The notes: a model not told the origin generated them from the letters alone. A stretch of DNA of 64,000 nucleotides from Bacteroidota bacterium (GCA_019695345.1 JAIBAE010000005.1:9186-73185), one strand, 5' to 3'. Positions 21,382 through 26,802 are shown, counted from the stretch's first letter. A program made the numbers and translations.

Positions 21382-22368
21382 TTAATTTTGTTCTACCCAC
21401 ACACCCATGTTATCAAATTTTTCTAAGCGTTGTTGAACTAGTTGCTCGGGTGTAAGTTGTTTGAGCGTTTGTAATTCTTGTAAAAGCACGTGCTTTAATG
21501 TTAGGAACATTTCGTCGGGTTTGCGGTGCGCTCCACCAACGGGCTCGGGAACTATTACATCAATTATACCGTGACTTTTTAAATCGGGTGCTGTGAGTTG
21601 TAATGCTTCTGCAGCTTGTTCTTTGTAGTCCCAACTGCGCCATAAAATGGATGAACAAGACTCCGGTGCAATTACAGAGTACCATGAGTTTTCTAACATC
21701 AGGATTCTGTTGCCTACGCCAATTCCAAGTGCACCGCCACTTGCGCCTTCGCCAATAATGCAGATGATAACCGGAACTTTCAGTGTGGACATTACAAACA
21801 AATTCCGCGCAATTGCCTCGGCTTGTCCACGTTCTTCGGCTTCTATTCCGGGATACGCGCCGGGTGTATCCAACAAGCAAATTACCGGCTTGTTAAACTT
21901 TTCAGCCATCTCGAACATACGTTTAGCTTTTCGGTATCCTTCGGGGTTGGGCATACCAAAATTGCGGTAGAGATTTGATTTGGTGTCGCGTCCTTTTTGA
22001 TGCCCAACAACCACTACAGAAGTTTCGTTAATGCGCGCTAGACCGCACACAATAGCAGGGTCATCGCGGTAACTTCTATCGCCATGTAATTCTACAAATT
22101 CATCGAATGAATTTTGGAAGTAATCCAGCGAGTAAGGTCTATCGGGGTGGCGTGCTATCTGCACTCGTTGCCAGCGTGTAAGGTTGTTATATATCTCCGA
22201 GCGGAGTTCCTCTATTCTGCCTTCTAAGTCTTCAATTTCCGAACTGATATCTAAAGCACCGGCCAGCGAACGCATTTCCGCTACTTTTTTCTCAAGTTCT
22301 ATAATTGGTTTTTCAAATTCTAAGGTATAAGCCACTGTTGTATCCTGTTTATCGTTTTCTGAAAGCAA
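21382..22368 (-). CDS. accA: Acetyl-CoA carboxylase carboxyltransferase subunit alpha.
   Basis: Canonical AccA blocks ...RHPDRPY...VCGLARI...GHQKGRDTK...[25 protein letters not shown]. Its 5' end overlaps the upstream GT2-PGT gene by 20 nt. Confidence 0.95.
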
Positions 22369-24331
22369 ATTTTAAGAGAATATCTGTATCAAGAGAAAGC
22401 GAATAATTCCTGACGTAGTATTCGTTGAGTTTTTGAATGGCATCCTGCGAAAGTTGTTCGGGTCTGCTAATACTTGCTAAACTTATTAATCCAATTTTTC
22501 CGAGCTGTTTTTCTTGGTTTGGGGTAGTATCATCGAATATTCCAACAATACTTTTTCTTCCAAGTAAAACCAACCACCAGTTTTGCAGGTATTGCGCTAC
22601 TTTATTCCTTGTCAAAAATACAACAGGTGTACCAACCAACAATGCAAAGAGAGCACCTATTATATCCAACAAACGTTTGGTTATCCGGTTACGGAATGTA
22701 AGAATGTTATACTTTGGTAAAGTTGCTTCGGTACCGGATATATCGGTAATAATGCGTGATATTACCACATTTTCGTAGTCGCCGGCAAAGTGGTATCGAA
22801 CTCCCAATGCAGCCGATGAACGGACAATATTAATAAGTTCGTTTTGTTGTAGGGTATCATCAACAATAATTACCTCGCGTATATCATATTGATGTATCAG
22901 TTTGTTTAAGTAACTGCTGTTTCCAACAACTGGTATTCCACGTACCGTTTCGGGGGGATTACCCTGTGTAGATATTACACCCAGTATATGTGCATTGAAT
23001 GTTTCTCCGGTGCGGAGGGCATCTATCATACGTTCGGTTTTTTCGTTGATTCCAAGAATGGCAATTCTTCTATCAGAACGTTTGCCAAATAATCTATCAA
23101 ACAATGCTACTGTTAGCCGTGTTACCGATGCACAAACAATGGATAATCCTATCGTCATTAGAATTACCCCACGACTAAATGCATAGTCATTCCAATAATA
23201 GGTAAGTGCAGATAGTACAAAAAAGACAACCAGATAGCCAAATACAGCCCTGCGTACCGTTGGCTTGTATTCAAAGTACTCTCCAATTGAGACCATACTG
23301 CCAATAGTAACCACAACCAGAACAATGAATACCAATGGATACGCCAACGGCGGAAATCCAAACGGACTTTTAAAGCGGATGTTTGTAGCAACCAACAACA
23401 TTAAGATCGTACACAGAACATCAATCAACAATAAAAAAATGCCTCGTCTGTAACGGTGCATGTATGCAAGTTGAGAGCGCAGCCAAATCCCCAACCGTAA
23501 CACGGATAAAAACATCGCAGAAGTACCATAATGTTTCTCGGCAAAAATTTCCATTGCTTGGTAAAACACTTTTACTTCGTTAATAGAACTACGGCGGGTA
23601 CTTTCGCCTTTAAAGTGAATGATGGTTGTAGTAGGCACATAGGCAGTTACAAAACCCGATTGTGCCATTCGATAACACAAGTCCAAGTCTTCGCCATACA
23701 TAAAAAAGTCGGGGTCAAATCCACCAATTGCTTTTAGCTGTTTACCCCTGCAGAACATAAATGCACCTATCAGTGCATCAACATTGTAGGTTTCGTTTTC
23801 ATTACGGAATGTTTGATTGTATTGTGCAAACAATGGCGAATTGGGAAACAACGCCTGCAAACCAAACAACTTACAGAACGAAGCCCACGGAGTTGGAAAA
23901 CCACGTCTGCATTGCGCTTGAAATGTACCATCGGCATTTAGAACCTTGCAACCACAAATACCAACATCTGTATGGGCATCCATGTACTCAGCCATGCGTA
24001 GCAACGTGTCTTCTTCTACAATGGTATCGGGGTTTAATAGTAGAATGTACTCTCCGTTCGCACGTTCAATTCCAACATTATTAGCTCTGCCAAATCCAAT
24101 GTTCTCTTGTAACGGAATAAATGTTACCCACGGAAACAACAGACCAAGATATTCAAGCGAACCATCTTGGGAATTATTATCAACTACTATAACTTCTAAG
24201 CGGTGGTTGTTACGCACACGGTCAATCGACTGCAAACATTGAAGCAGAAAATCTTTCACATTGTAATTAACAATAACAATGCTAATTAATGAAGGATGGA
24301 CAAGCGATGATGTGGAGTTTGTTACTTCCAT
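22349..24331 (-). CDS. Fusion protein: N-terminal GT2 glycosyltransferase, then a WbaP-like membrane/CoA-binding region and a degenerate polyprenyl-glycosylphosphotransferase (PGT) catalytic domain carrying an internal deletion.
   Basis: GT2: [12 protein letters not shown]...[10 protein letters not shown]...[13 protein letters not shown] part: [22 protein letters not shown] then only TRNKVAQ before [17 protein letters not shown]; the downstream intact paralogue has ~70 aa here, including KFRSMVQDAE. Tail ...[18 protein letters not shown] matches the PGT C-terminus, but VGPRPE becomes VGIFDD. Confidence 0.75.
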
Positions 24332-24363
24332 AGTTGATGTTTACTACATGGTATGCAGTAAAC

Positions 24364-25099: not shown

Positions 25100-25283
25100 C
25101 TTTGCTATCGCCTGACGGCACCGATTCGCATTTTCCAAACGCATCGTTCAGTGCCGGAATGAACCATCATTCTCTGCTACCACCTCCACGATAAACGATT
25201 ATTCGATAGTTTATCGTTCTTATCCGCAAGGTAACGGTGTTTGTTTTGTAATGTTTGGTGCGGACTGCGTTAGCATAGTAAAA
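25100..25283. repeat. Family A element, complete copy (~184 bp) inside the exopolysaccharide locus, between the wbaP-like stop and the GT2 start.
   Basis: Left CTTTGCTATCGCCTGACGGCACC (25100-25122); internal GTGCCGGAATGAACC; right GGTGCGGACTGCGTTAGCATAGTAAAA (25257-25283). The left end is only ~5 nt from the GT2 start codon. Confidence 0.65.
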
Positions 25284-25302
25284 CAAAAACAATAATTGTT
25301 AC

Positions 25303-26802
25303 TTATGCCTGCCCATGCCCGCTTAGAACAACAAATACCGTGCGTACAATTATTTCGATGTCGAGTTTAAGCGACATGTTTTCGATGTAGAAGAAATCGT
25401 AGCGTAAACGGTGCTCAATTTCTTCAATAGATTCTTCGTATGTGGTGTACTTTATTTGCCACCAGCCTGTTAGGCCCGGGCGTACGCGGTGACGGCGGTT
25501 GTAATATGGTAACAATGCATTGTATTTTTCAACAAACTTTGGTTGCTCAGGGCGTGGTCCAACCAAACTCATTTCACCTTTAAGAATATTCCACATTTGC
25601 GGAATTTCATCGATGTGTGTTTTGCGGATAAACCAACCAAACTTAGTTACACGGGGGTCGCCAACAACGGTCCATTGTTGCCCATGTTTCTCAGCATCTT
25701 GAACCATAGAGCGGAACTTGTAAATCCAGAACACATGTCCGTTTTTACCAACACGTTTCTGTTTGAACAAAGCTGGTCCGCGGGATTCTATTTTAATGAT
25801 TGCAACTATCAACAACCACACGGGTAATCCAAGTACTATCACTGCTGCACTAAACACTATATCAATTAAGCGTTTTATTGCTTCTTCCCAGGGTTTAAGT
25901 AACTCCGGGTTAACCTCTATTAAAGGAGAACCGTATATCTGTAATGTTTTTACCTGTCCGGTTACAATTTCGTATAAATCGGGGACAATCTTTACCGATA
26001 TGCCGCGGTCGTTAGCATGTGATGCAATACGCAACATTTGCTCGTGGTCGGCAGAGTCGAGTGCCAGTAGTACAACACCCGGTTTACACGAATCCAGAAT
26101 TGATTCAATATTGGTTACTTCACCAATAAAACGTGGTGAATTATTCCAACCAAACATTTCGGCAGCCGAAGTAAGTACAACACCTTGGATATCATATCCC
26201 CACGCTGGTTCGCTTTGTACCTGTTTAAACAACTCTTTTACTTTGTTACCGCAACCAACAATTACTGTAGGTAACGTAATGATTCCTTTAATTCGTAAAC
26301 GGCGTTGAATCTGGCGCGCAATAAAACGGAATGTACATAACGAAAAAACAAGAAGACCTAAAAAGAACAATAGTTTGTACCGCAACGCACCGTTTTCAAT
26401 CAGTATAATCAACACAGGAATAATACCAGATATTACAACTGCTTTTATGATAGTAAAAAATTCATCGAACGGCGAACGTATGTACCAGTTTTTATATAAC
26501 CCGCCAAGCCATAATGCAACTATTCCAAAAGTCAGTCCGGCAAGTATAAATGTTGCAAAAAATTCCCATGTCTGAACAACAGGATTTGCCTCGGGCGAGA
26601 GTATCTTTAGAAAGTAGAAAGTAATGTTACATACTACAATAGCAACGAAATCCGATACAAACTGAAAAAACACGGGCGACTGAAACACACTTAGCTTTTT
26701 AGATAAAGAGACAGTATTGGTTGCACCAATAATCTCACCAACAACATTTCCGGATGTTGGTTTAGTGTATCCTTCGGTAATATGTGTTTTATCAAATGGC
26801 AA
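25303..26802 (-). CDS. Undecaprenyl-phosphate sugar phosphotransferase (WbaP / exopolysaccharide polyprenyl glycosylphosphotransferase family), intact.
   Basis: TM bundle, CoA-binding-like domain, catalytic ...KFRSMVQDAEK...DEIPQMWNILKGEMSLVGPRPEQ...RPGLTGWWQIKY...YDFFYIENMSLKLDIEII. Confidence 0.9.
   Translation of the reverse strand: MPFDKTHITEGYTKPTSGNVVGEIIGATNTVSLSKKLSVFQSPVFFQFVSDFVAIVVCNITFYFLKILSPEANPVVQTWEFFATFILAGLTFGIVALWLGGLYKNWYIRSPFDEFFTIIKAVVISGIIPVLIILIENGALRYKLLFFLGLLVFSLCTFRFIARQIQRRLRIKGIITLPTVIVGCGNKVKELFKQVQSEPAWGYDIQGVVLTSAAEMFGWNNSPRFIGEVTNIESILDSCKPGVVLLALDSADHEQMLRIASHANDRGISVKIVPDLYEIVTGQVKTLQIYGSPLIEVNPELLKPWEEAIKRLIDIVFSAAVIVLGLPVWLLIVAIIKIESRGPALFKQKRVGKNGHVFWIYKFRSMVQDAEKHGQQWTVVGDPRVTKFGWFIRKTHIDEIPQMWNILKGEMSLVGPRPEQPKFVEKYNALLPYYNRRHRVRPGLTGWWQIKYTTYEESIEEIEHRLRYDFFYIENMSLKLDIEIIVRTVFVVLSGHGQA

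Follow-up and report, generated by a model that had tools for sequence, protein, structure and literature searches.

What remains of a phosphoglycosyltransferase (PGT) once its catalytic core has been lost, and why would the remainder be kept? The question is raised by a gene at positions 22349-24331 (minus strand) of a 64,000-nucleotide stretch of DNA from Bacteroidota bacterium (GCA_019695345.1 JAIBAE010000005.1:9186-73185; hereafter the window, in which all positions are counted), the 660-amino acid (aa) product of which joins an N-terminal GT2 glycosyltransferase domain to parts of a large PGT of the WbaP type, and which lies two genes downstream of an intact large PGT. On the sequence comparisons described here, the fusion is a widespread pseudoenzyme derivative of the large-PGT architecture, joined to a GT2 domain that is predicted to be active.

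Architecture of the fusion protein

The following features were delineated, residue numbers being those of the encoded proteins:

22349-24331 (-): GT2/dead-PGT fusion gene; uninterrupted open reading frame (ORF), 660 aa
23582-24295 (-): GT2 catalytic domain, GT-A fold, predicted active (residues ~13-250)
23453-23578 (-): two amphipathic helices joining the GT2 domain to the membrane bundle (residues 252-293)
23090-23449 (-): four-helix transmembrane (TM) bundle of the large-PGT type (residues 295-414; AlphaFold2 helices, hydropathy and alignment)
22736-23071 (-): Rossmann-like domain of unknown function (DUF), PF13727 CoA_binding_3 (residues 421-532; Pfam and model)
22610-22696 (-): putative re-entrant membrane helix of the PGT, first arm, with K552, R553, D556 and the helix-breaking P569 (residues 546-574)
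22592-22612 (-): deletion scar TRNKVAQ (residues 574-580; alignments and motif spacing)
22352-22591 (-): C-terminal PGT stump, comprising an interfacial helix, two strands and C-terminal helices (residues 581-660)
25303-26802 (-): intact large monotopic PGT (WbaP/WcaJ-like), 499 aa, with all motifs

Pfam assigns residues 17-176 to GT2 (92.9 bits, cut-off 23.3) and residues 359-490 to CoA_binding_3 (PF13727; 39.3 bits, cut-off 25). The Bac_transf profile (PF02397) is matched at residues 585-654 through its positions 94-172 of 179 only, the score of 22.1 bits being below the cut-off of 27, and TIGR03025, the model of large exopolysaccharide PGTs, aligns through its positions 1-280 of 445 to residues 302-574 with 110.5 bits against a cut-off of 295.55. 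The accessory module of large PGTs is present, as the four TM helices and the PF13727 DUF are both alignable to those of large PGTs. [quoted passage not shown] Since there are four TM helices, the GT2 domain and the DUF both come to lie in the cytoplasm in this model.

The catalytic core of the PGT is missing

Direct reading of the two sequences finds 68 residues in the neighbouring PGT (IVAIIKIESRGPALF...KFRSM...DPRVT...THIDE, starting with IVAII) where the fusion has the seven residues TRNKVAQ (574-580), while VGPRPE of the neighbour has become VGIFDD, with GIFD in the place of GPRP. At the scar the re-entrant helix has lost its second arm, and the beta-hairpin, the KFRSM and DPR motifs and the Asp-Glu dyad are gone. 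When a profile of 102 family members was compared by hhalign with a profile of 12 intact large PGTs, a match with a probability of 100% was obtained (E=3.3e-59, 366 aligned columns) with one long gap exactly over GPxxY...KFRSM...DPR...DELPQ. The neighbour residues K362, R364, D382, R384, D398, E399, P416, R417 and P418, all invariant in intact PGTs, have no partner in the fusion, and a counterpart of the Asp-Glu dyad (DE[LI]PQ) was found in neither the profile-profile nor the multiple alignment, nor did motif scans covering more than 390 fusion proteins reveal one.

A second, smaller deletion, absent from the initial annotation, has removed the two helices that follow GPRP (neighbour residues 421-439 versus fusion residues 599-612; around window positions 22472-22537, where fusion residues 599-620 face neighbour residues 416-445), and at this site there is a short loop, for which the model has its lowest confidence (pLDDT 64). 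The fusion model has nothing equivalent to strands 345-363 of the neighbour model, and the secondary-structure elements of the stump match neighbour elements 397-414 and 443-494. After P569 only about four hydrophobic residues follow, and residues 546-574 are modelled as one continuous helix with a hydropathy peak at 554-572. The KR motif and the VG motif are 45 residues apart, as against 105-125 in intact large PGTs. On these alignments, the PGT part of the fusion cannot be a conventional PGT, and since the protein is homologous to large PGTs and yet without their defining catalytic features, it is not to be filed as a PGT.

The initial annotation of this DNA had described both ORFs at these coordinates, a GT2 domain followed by a TM bundle, a CoA-binding-like domain and the C-terminal block of a PGT, about 70 residues across the catalytic region replaced by seven, the change of VGPRPE to VGIFDD and an intact neighbour, and each of these elements was borne out: the domains were placed by Pfam, TIGR03025 and hhalign, the replacement was counted and the motif change was read directly, and the neighbour has a full-length Bac_transf domain, a TIGR03025 score above the cut-off and all motifs.

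An old family with graded loss of the core

The same gap is found in all 30 relatives that were aligned with the neighbour and S. enterica WbaP, and the best 120 database relatives, all of 605-694 aa, share it as well; the deletion is an old character of the family, present in several phyla. A search of 1.84 billion representative proteins with the C-terminal 370 residues gave 140 matches at E<=1e-10, the best of which are GT2 fusions of 620-760 aa, with intact PGTs appearing only from about 1e-16. None of the fusion-length matches in this search carries KFRSM or DExPQ, and GPRP occurs in one of them only (P0175). A one-genome-per-species scan, using patterns that lie in the GT2 domain, yielded at least 588 candidate relatives. 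The best 80 of these were verified, most of them matching over nearly the full length, and they belong to Kapabacteria, Ignavibacteriota, Kryptonia, Calditrichota, Marinimicrobia, Balneolaceae, TA06 and many Bacteroidota; the latter comprise Bacteroidales, Flavobacteriales, Chitinophagales and Cytophagales (e.g. Hymenobacter cavernae) and have the same junction and gap. KSB1, Gemmatimonadota and Zhuqueibacterota are added by the relatives of the longest form, among which (118 proteins) neither KFRSM nor DExPQ occurs. A Bacteroidales query for a named model-organism member returned proteins of uncultured metagenome-assembled genomes (MAGs) only. Judged by the sequences recovered, the fusion is an old, conserved protein family of the Fibrobacteres-Chlorobi-Bacteroidetes (FCB) group and related phyla and not a local accident.

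Members of the family are named "glycosyltransferase", "GT2 family glycosyltransferase" or "O-antigen biosynthesis protein" in the databases. Literature searches on pseudo-PGTs or inactive WbaP scaffolds returned nothing relevant, and accounts of the monoPGT superfamily describe small, large and bifunctional classes with no mention of dead members (PMC10942596, PMC11626204). The fusion family is apparently undescribed.

The extent of the deletion is not uniform. Among 396 fusion proteins the spacing between KRxxD and xVG falls into three classes, given here with that of intact enzymes:

40-54 residues: 277 proteins, with the window protein at 45
65-79 residues: 93 proteins, KSB1 and Calditrichota forms
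90-94 residues: 24 proteins, forms of ~720-760 aa
105-125 residues: intact large PGTs, not fusions

The intermediate forms possess a complete re-entrant helix and a degenerate hairpin without KFRSM or DE. In the longest forms (~760 aa) the domain is almost whole, with LDKWP or LEKW for IDELP, W-x-T-R-x-I for KFRSM and, in some cases, GPR. In a neighbour-joining sketch built on the shared TM-DUF-helix region, without support values, all fusions except the 761-aa form make up one clade apart from the intact PGTs, in which long forms are basal and short forms nested. The picture is that of a GT2 and large-PGT fusion whose PGT domain would have died early and would then have been trimmed, an order of steps that we infer. 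No live GT2 and large-PGT fusion of the kind expected of an ancestor was found among 150 representatives or among the 118 relatives of the longest form.

Proteins of about 400 aa that looked like dead PGTs standing alone also came up in the representative search. All three that were checked proved to be cut by a contig end (L083, L085) or split by a frameshift (L084), giving no support for a free form. In the last of these (L084:878-2825) the GT2 part and the membrane part lie in different frames, which may reflect a frameshift, a sequencing error or a gene that is really split. A 732-aa protein nested among the short forms (P0126) carries, at the deletion scar, an insertion of low complexity in which Asn, His and Lys abound, so that this junction evidently tolerates insertions.

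The neighbouring PGT is not the parent of the dead domain

The 499-aa neighbour matches Bac_transf from end to end (234.7 bits) and TIGR03025 with 429 bits against the cut-off of 295.55, resembles the WbaP structure 8t53 (E=2e-37) and carries KFRSM, DEIPQ and GPRPE. Its identity to the fusion is only about 19-22%, and this over short stretches. A phmmer search with the fusion reported other large PGTs at 57-76 bits and did not report the neighbour, which in the tree sketch stands among the intact PGTs and outside the fusion clade. On these comparisons other large PGTs are at least as close to the fusion as the neighbour, which is not the parent of the dead domain; a recent duplication of the neighbour was accordingly rejected as its source. 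The initial annotation had seen duplication, fusion and loss of activity in this pair of genes. Of this proposal, the fusion to a large-PGT scaffold without a core is upheld. Local duplication of the neighbour followed by decay is not, both on the above grounds and because the deletion is common to several phyla and no PGT is found within 8 kb of the fusion in Bacteroidota (see below).

Retained residues and selection on the stump

Across the 102 family sequences, K552 is conserved in 100, R553 in 96, D556 in 100 and P569 in 89, while further along the chain G591 is present in 100, G597 in 101 and Y639 and D648 in all 102. In PglC, a Lys-Arg pair and a Ser-Pro break define the re-entrant helix, which is held by a salt bridge between Lys7 and Asp169 and by a contact of Arg8 with lipid (PMC6133551). 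K552, R553, P569 and D648 of the fusion would be the counterparts of the PglC residues by which the re-entrant helix is held, which suggests that the dead domain keeps a helix anchor stapled to the C-terminal helices and does not keep catalysis. The ratio of non-synonymous to synonymous substitution rates (dN/dS), estimated from six fairly close Bacteroidota pairs, was 0.03-0.14 for residues 541-660 and 0.03-0.05 for the GT2 domain, values that are approximate as dS is near saturation in most pairs. The notion that the scaffold has been retained for a reason is supported by this purifying selection together with the near-invariance of the structural residues.

The GT2 domain is apparently competent

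The GT2 part has the features of its family (PF00535, GT-A), namely the family score, a DxD-type metal/nucleotide motif and an acidic catalytic-base residue. D51, N52, S54, N77, G79, N85, N100-P101-D102, E214-D215, D217, H239, G242 and S244 are invariant in 102 of 102 sequences. Its best structural matches are GlfT2 (4FIX), a PglI-type enzyme (9JMA) and WbbL-like rhamnosyltransferases, with weak matches to TIGR01556 and EpsD. The GT2 domain of the fusion is thus apparently catalytically competent, an activity predicted from these residues.

Genomic context

On the minus strand of the window the fusion is the fourth of five genes in the order Wza-like exporter, large PGT, small GT2, fusion and accA. 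The features of this cluster not listed above are:

26815-28587 (-): Wza-like polysaccharide export protein, first gene of the cluster (Pfam Poly_export, SLBB, SLBB_2)
24364-25095 (-): small GT2, 243 aa, without a TM helix (Pfam/NCBIfam; no hydropathy peak)
21382-22368 (-): accA (Pfam ACCA, 485 bits), the start of which overlaps the fusion stop by 20 nt (22349-22368)
21247-21270 (-): terminator-like hairpin 3' of accA (10-bp stem and T-run; consensus match only)

The hairpin is the probable end of the transcription unit; a sigma-70 promoter scan was uninformative, giving fewer matches than in shuffled sequences. The small GT2 resembles the polyprenyl-phosphate sugar synthases DPM1, PpgS, AglJ and ArnC, with all of its NCBIfam matches below the curated cut-offs.

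Outside Bacteroidota, 32 of 38 informative loci have the small GT2 immediately upstream of the fusion, and no other upstream partner is as constant; a large PGT occurs in 22 of 32 informative loci at a distance of up to about 4 kb on the upstream side, and accA is almost always downstream. The order of fusion followed by accA is kept in Kapabacteria, Ignavibacteriota, Calditrichota, Marinimicrobia, KSB1 and one further lineage, and where both genes were called the fusion stop and the accA start overlap by 11-26 nt (also in L001, L002, L086 and L087). Such a linkage would join an envelope glycosyltransferase to fatty-acid synthesis. In L087 (L087:2312-4708), a distant locus, the order is GT4, methyltransferase, YfhO, epimerase, small GT2, fusion, accA, Trm112, mreC, mreD, PBP2, rodA and lgt, which suggests a link to genes of extracytoplasmic glycosylation and cell-wall growth.

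In 45 Bacteroidota loci no PGT, small GT2, accA or polysaccharide genes were found within 8 kb of the fusion. There, recR is upstream in 17 of the 45 (including L032, L033, L035, L037 and L038) and the other neighbours are housekeeping genes. In some of the family a PGT of the neighbour's type is conserved as a partner in the operon, and it is not universal. A fusion of the Bacteroidota type beside recR was also encountered in a MAG titled Bifidobacterium breve (L062, CALQEU020000011.1), probably through mis-binning or mislabelling.

Proposed function and alternative explanations

Taken together, the sequence evidence makes it probable that a non-catalytic module of PGT descent holds an active GT2 at the membrane, and that the protein takes part in early undecaprenyl-linked glycan assembly. 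The fusion would consist of a catalytically competent, non-processive GT2 and a module descended from a large monotopic PGT. In this module the four TM helices and the nucleotide-binding DUF would have been kept, together with the first arm of the re-entrant helix and those C-terminal helices by which this arm is stapled. As the module is conserved under selection in spite of the loss of the core, the TM bundle, DUF and helix anchor are likely to be useful by themselves, whether in anchoring, oligomerisation or nucleotide sensing. The dead module would serve as a structural part that anchors and orients the active site of the GT2 at the cytoplasmic face of the membrane, and may also have retained nucleotide sensing and self- or hetero-association. 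The GT2 would use a nucleotide sugar as donor and a polyprenyl-(pyro)phosphate-linked acceptor at an early step in the assembly of an envelope glycan and, in Kapabacteria, Ignavibacteriota and their relatives, would be co-transcribed with an initiating PGT, a small GT2 resembling undecaprenyl phosphate (Und-P) sugar synthases and accA. The sequences themselves show the architecture, the missing core, conservation throughout the family, purifying selection, the invariant motifs of the GT2 and the conserved order of genes, whereas activity of the GT2, its use of an acceptor linked to lipid, the part of the module as an anchor and its contact, if any, with a PGT are elements that we infer. Several points weigh against this reading: the near-saturation of dS that limits the selection estimates, the equation of D648 with Asp169 of PglC by arithmetic on alignment positions, the sketch-like nature of the tree and the context in Bacteroidota, where partnership with a PGT is not general.

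The initial annotation had suggested that the scaffold may tether the GT2 to the initiating enzyme complex or to the lipid carrier, a purpose that is plausible and in favour of which stands the operon of large PGT, small GT2 and fusion, conserved outside Bacteroidota. A specific form of this idea, in which the dead module pairs with the intact large PGT two genes upstream through TM helix 3 (TMH3) and the DUF and the undecaprenyl diphosphate (Und-PP)-sugar is passed directly to the GT2, has its attraction in the structure of WbaP, which dimerises by TMH3 and DUF with its catalytic domains facing outward (PMC10942596). The fusion retains the TM bundle and the DUF, and the frequent presence of a large PGT no more than about 4 kb upstream (the 22 of 32 informative non-Bacteroidota loci) is in keeping with such a pairing. 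However, the segment corresponding to the domain-swap hairpin of WbaP, although unchanged in length, shows no predicted strands in the model of the fusion, whereas the neighbour model has the hairpin at 284-297, and the GxPLI signature has been lost. In addition, Bacteroidota members and about ten other loci have no adjacent PGT, and the identity between fusion and neighbour is only about 20%. Such channelling is conceivable and, on balance, doubtful. The same tentative standing is given to the wider idea that the dead module is an adaptor which, through the old PGT dimer interface, builds a two-enzyme machine with the large PGT (or with the small Und-P-sugar synthase), the first intermediate committed to the membrane being passed straight to the fused GT2. 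If true, the module would be a naturally occurring pseudoenzyme scaffold that spans phyla and serves the opening steps of envelope-glycan assembly, and the four-helix bundle and DUF of large PGTs would have a function independent of catalysis. It could also be supposed that the dead module acts as a tether which brings the 243-aa DPM1-like GT2 to the membrane and to undecaprenyl phosphate, much as DPM3 does for DPM1 or Ppm2 for Ppm1, given that this small protein is without a hydrophobic segment, is akin to polyprenyl-phosphate sugar synthases, is the most constant upstream neighbour (32 of 38 loci) and, in L087, comes after a YfhO (GT-C) gene; YfhO-type GT-C enzymes use polyprenyl-phosphate-linked sugars. 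This proposal leaves the invariant active site of the fusion's own GT2 unexplained, finds no small GT2 near the fusion in Bacteroidota and has to contend with NCBIfam matches that all fall short of the curated cut-offs, and we consider it unlikely.

Residual or new catalysis, by which the stump would perform phosphosugar transfer or some other chemistry with different residues, could be suspected from the (near-)invariance of D556, D648 and Y639 and from the ~760-aa forms, which have an acidic residue at the Asp position (LDKWP/LEKW) and sometimes GPR. The same residues are, however, conserved in active PGTs, in which the Lys-Arg motif and the paired Asp are structural; no new invariant acidic pair has arisen; the hairpin, the Lys and Arg of KFRSM, DPR, the Glu of the dyad and the Arg of PRP are without a counterpart; and the scores remain below the Pfam and TIGRFAM cut-offs. 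Catalysis by the stump is for these reasons very improbable. Barely credible is the explanation of the gap by faulty assembly, a frameshift or a decaying pseudogene recently inactivated by deletion, for which nothing speaks other than the gap relative to the neighbour itself. The reading frame is open and uninterrupted, the DNA has no room for some 60 further codons, the identical protein is on record from four contigs (Candidatus Kapaibacterium sp.), the best homologues are of the same length, the gap is common to hundreds of homologues from several phyla, and dN/dS in the pairs compared is far below 1; an assembly error or frameshift was rejected on this basis.

Comparison with known systems and significance

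The homology of the fusion to large PGTs such as WbaP, WcaJ and CpsE (PF13727 and PF02397; 8T53) is certain (hhalign E=3e-59; Foldseek E=6e-11), as they have in common the TM bundle, the DUF, KRxxD with the helix-breaking Pro and the C-terminal helices. They differ in that the fusion has lost the core, GPRP and two further helices, carries an N-terminal GT2 and scores below the family cut-offs. In WbaP the N-terminal module is structural and regulatory, with the four-helix bundle and DUF as the dimer interface and the DUF binding UMP/UDP (PMC10942596). The bifunctional PGTs (BiPGTs), in which a glycosyltransferase or an acetyltransferase is fused to a monoPGT core (PMC11626204, PMC10942596), likewise combine a glycosyltransferase and a monoPGT-type domain in one chain. 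In BiPGTs, however, the core is the active, defining domain, whereas the PGT core of the fusion is dead in every member examined. The PglF-like UDP-sugar dehydratases carry the same N-terminal module of four TM helices and DUF on another catalytic domain, which marks it as a portable module (PMC10942596); their dehydratase domain is C-terminal and no PGT stump has been reported for them, unlike the fusion with its N-terminal GT2.

As regards the GT2 part, the enzymes that extend polyprenyl-diphosphate-linked glycans (GlfT2, PglI-type and WbbL-like) share with the fusion the GT-A fold and the D...NPD...ED...HxxGxS pattern. They have no PGT-derived membrane module, and the likeness gives no substrate specificity for the fusion. 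Non-catalytic membrane partners of GT2s are known in DPM3, which tethers DPM1, and Ppm2, which tethers Ppm1. These would have the concept of a tether in common with the fusion, although their folds are unrelated and the tether is there a separate protein.

Among the enzymes that initiate bacterial surface-glycan synthesis, large PGTs are the most abundant, and the fusion family represents a natural dissection of their architecture, the core having been removed in three grades and the accessory module kept under selection. The role of the non-catalytic four-helix bundle and DUF in large PGTs is unsettled (PMC10942596). As regards annotation, a faint Bac_transf match in a protein called "glycosyltransferase" or "O-antigen biosynthesis protein" is not enough to count it as a PGT when pathways of Bacteroidota, Ignavibacteriota and their relatives are reconstructed. 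The wide distribution of the gene, its housekeeping context, the link to accA and the occurrence of mreCD-PBP2-rodA in one locus suggest a core envelope function in the FCB group, unstudied so far.

Further features of the window

Beyond the cluster, the ORFs at 16197-18076 and 20200-21171 gave no Pfam matches. Between them, at 18085-20193 (+), a 702-aa protein is encoded, the C-terminus of which matches the sorting domain of type IX secretion weakly (Por_Secre_tail, 24.5 bits, below the cut-off of 27). A gene for a NUDIX hydrolase lies a few genes from the cassette in three loci, namely at 30554-31138 (+) of the window, L001:12652-13119 and L002:13110-13592.

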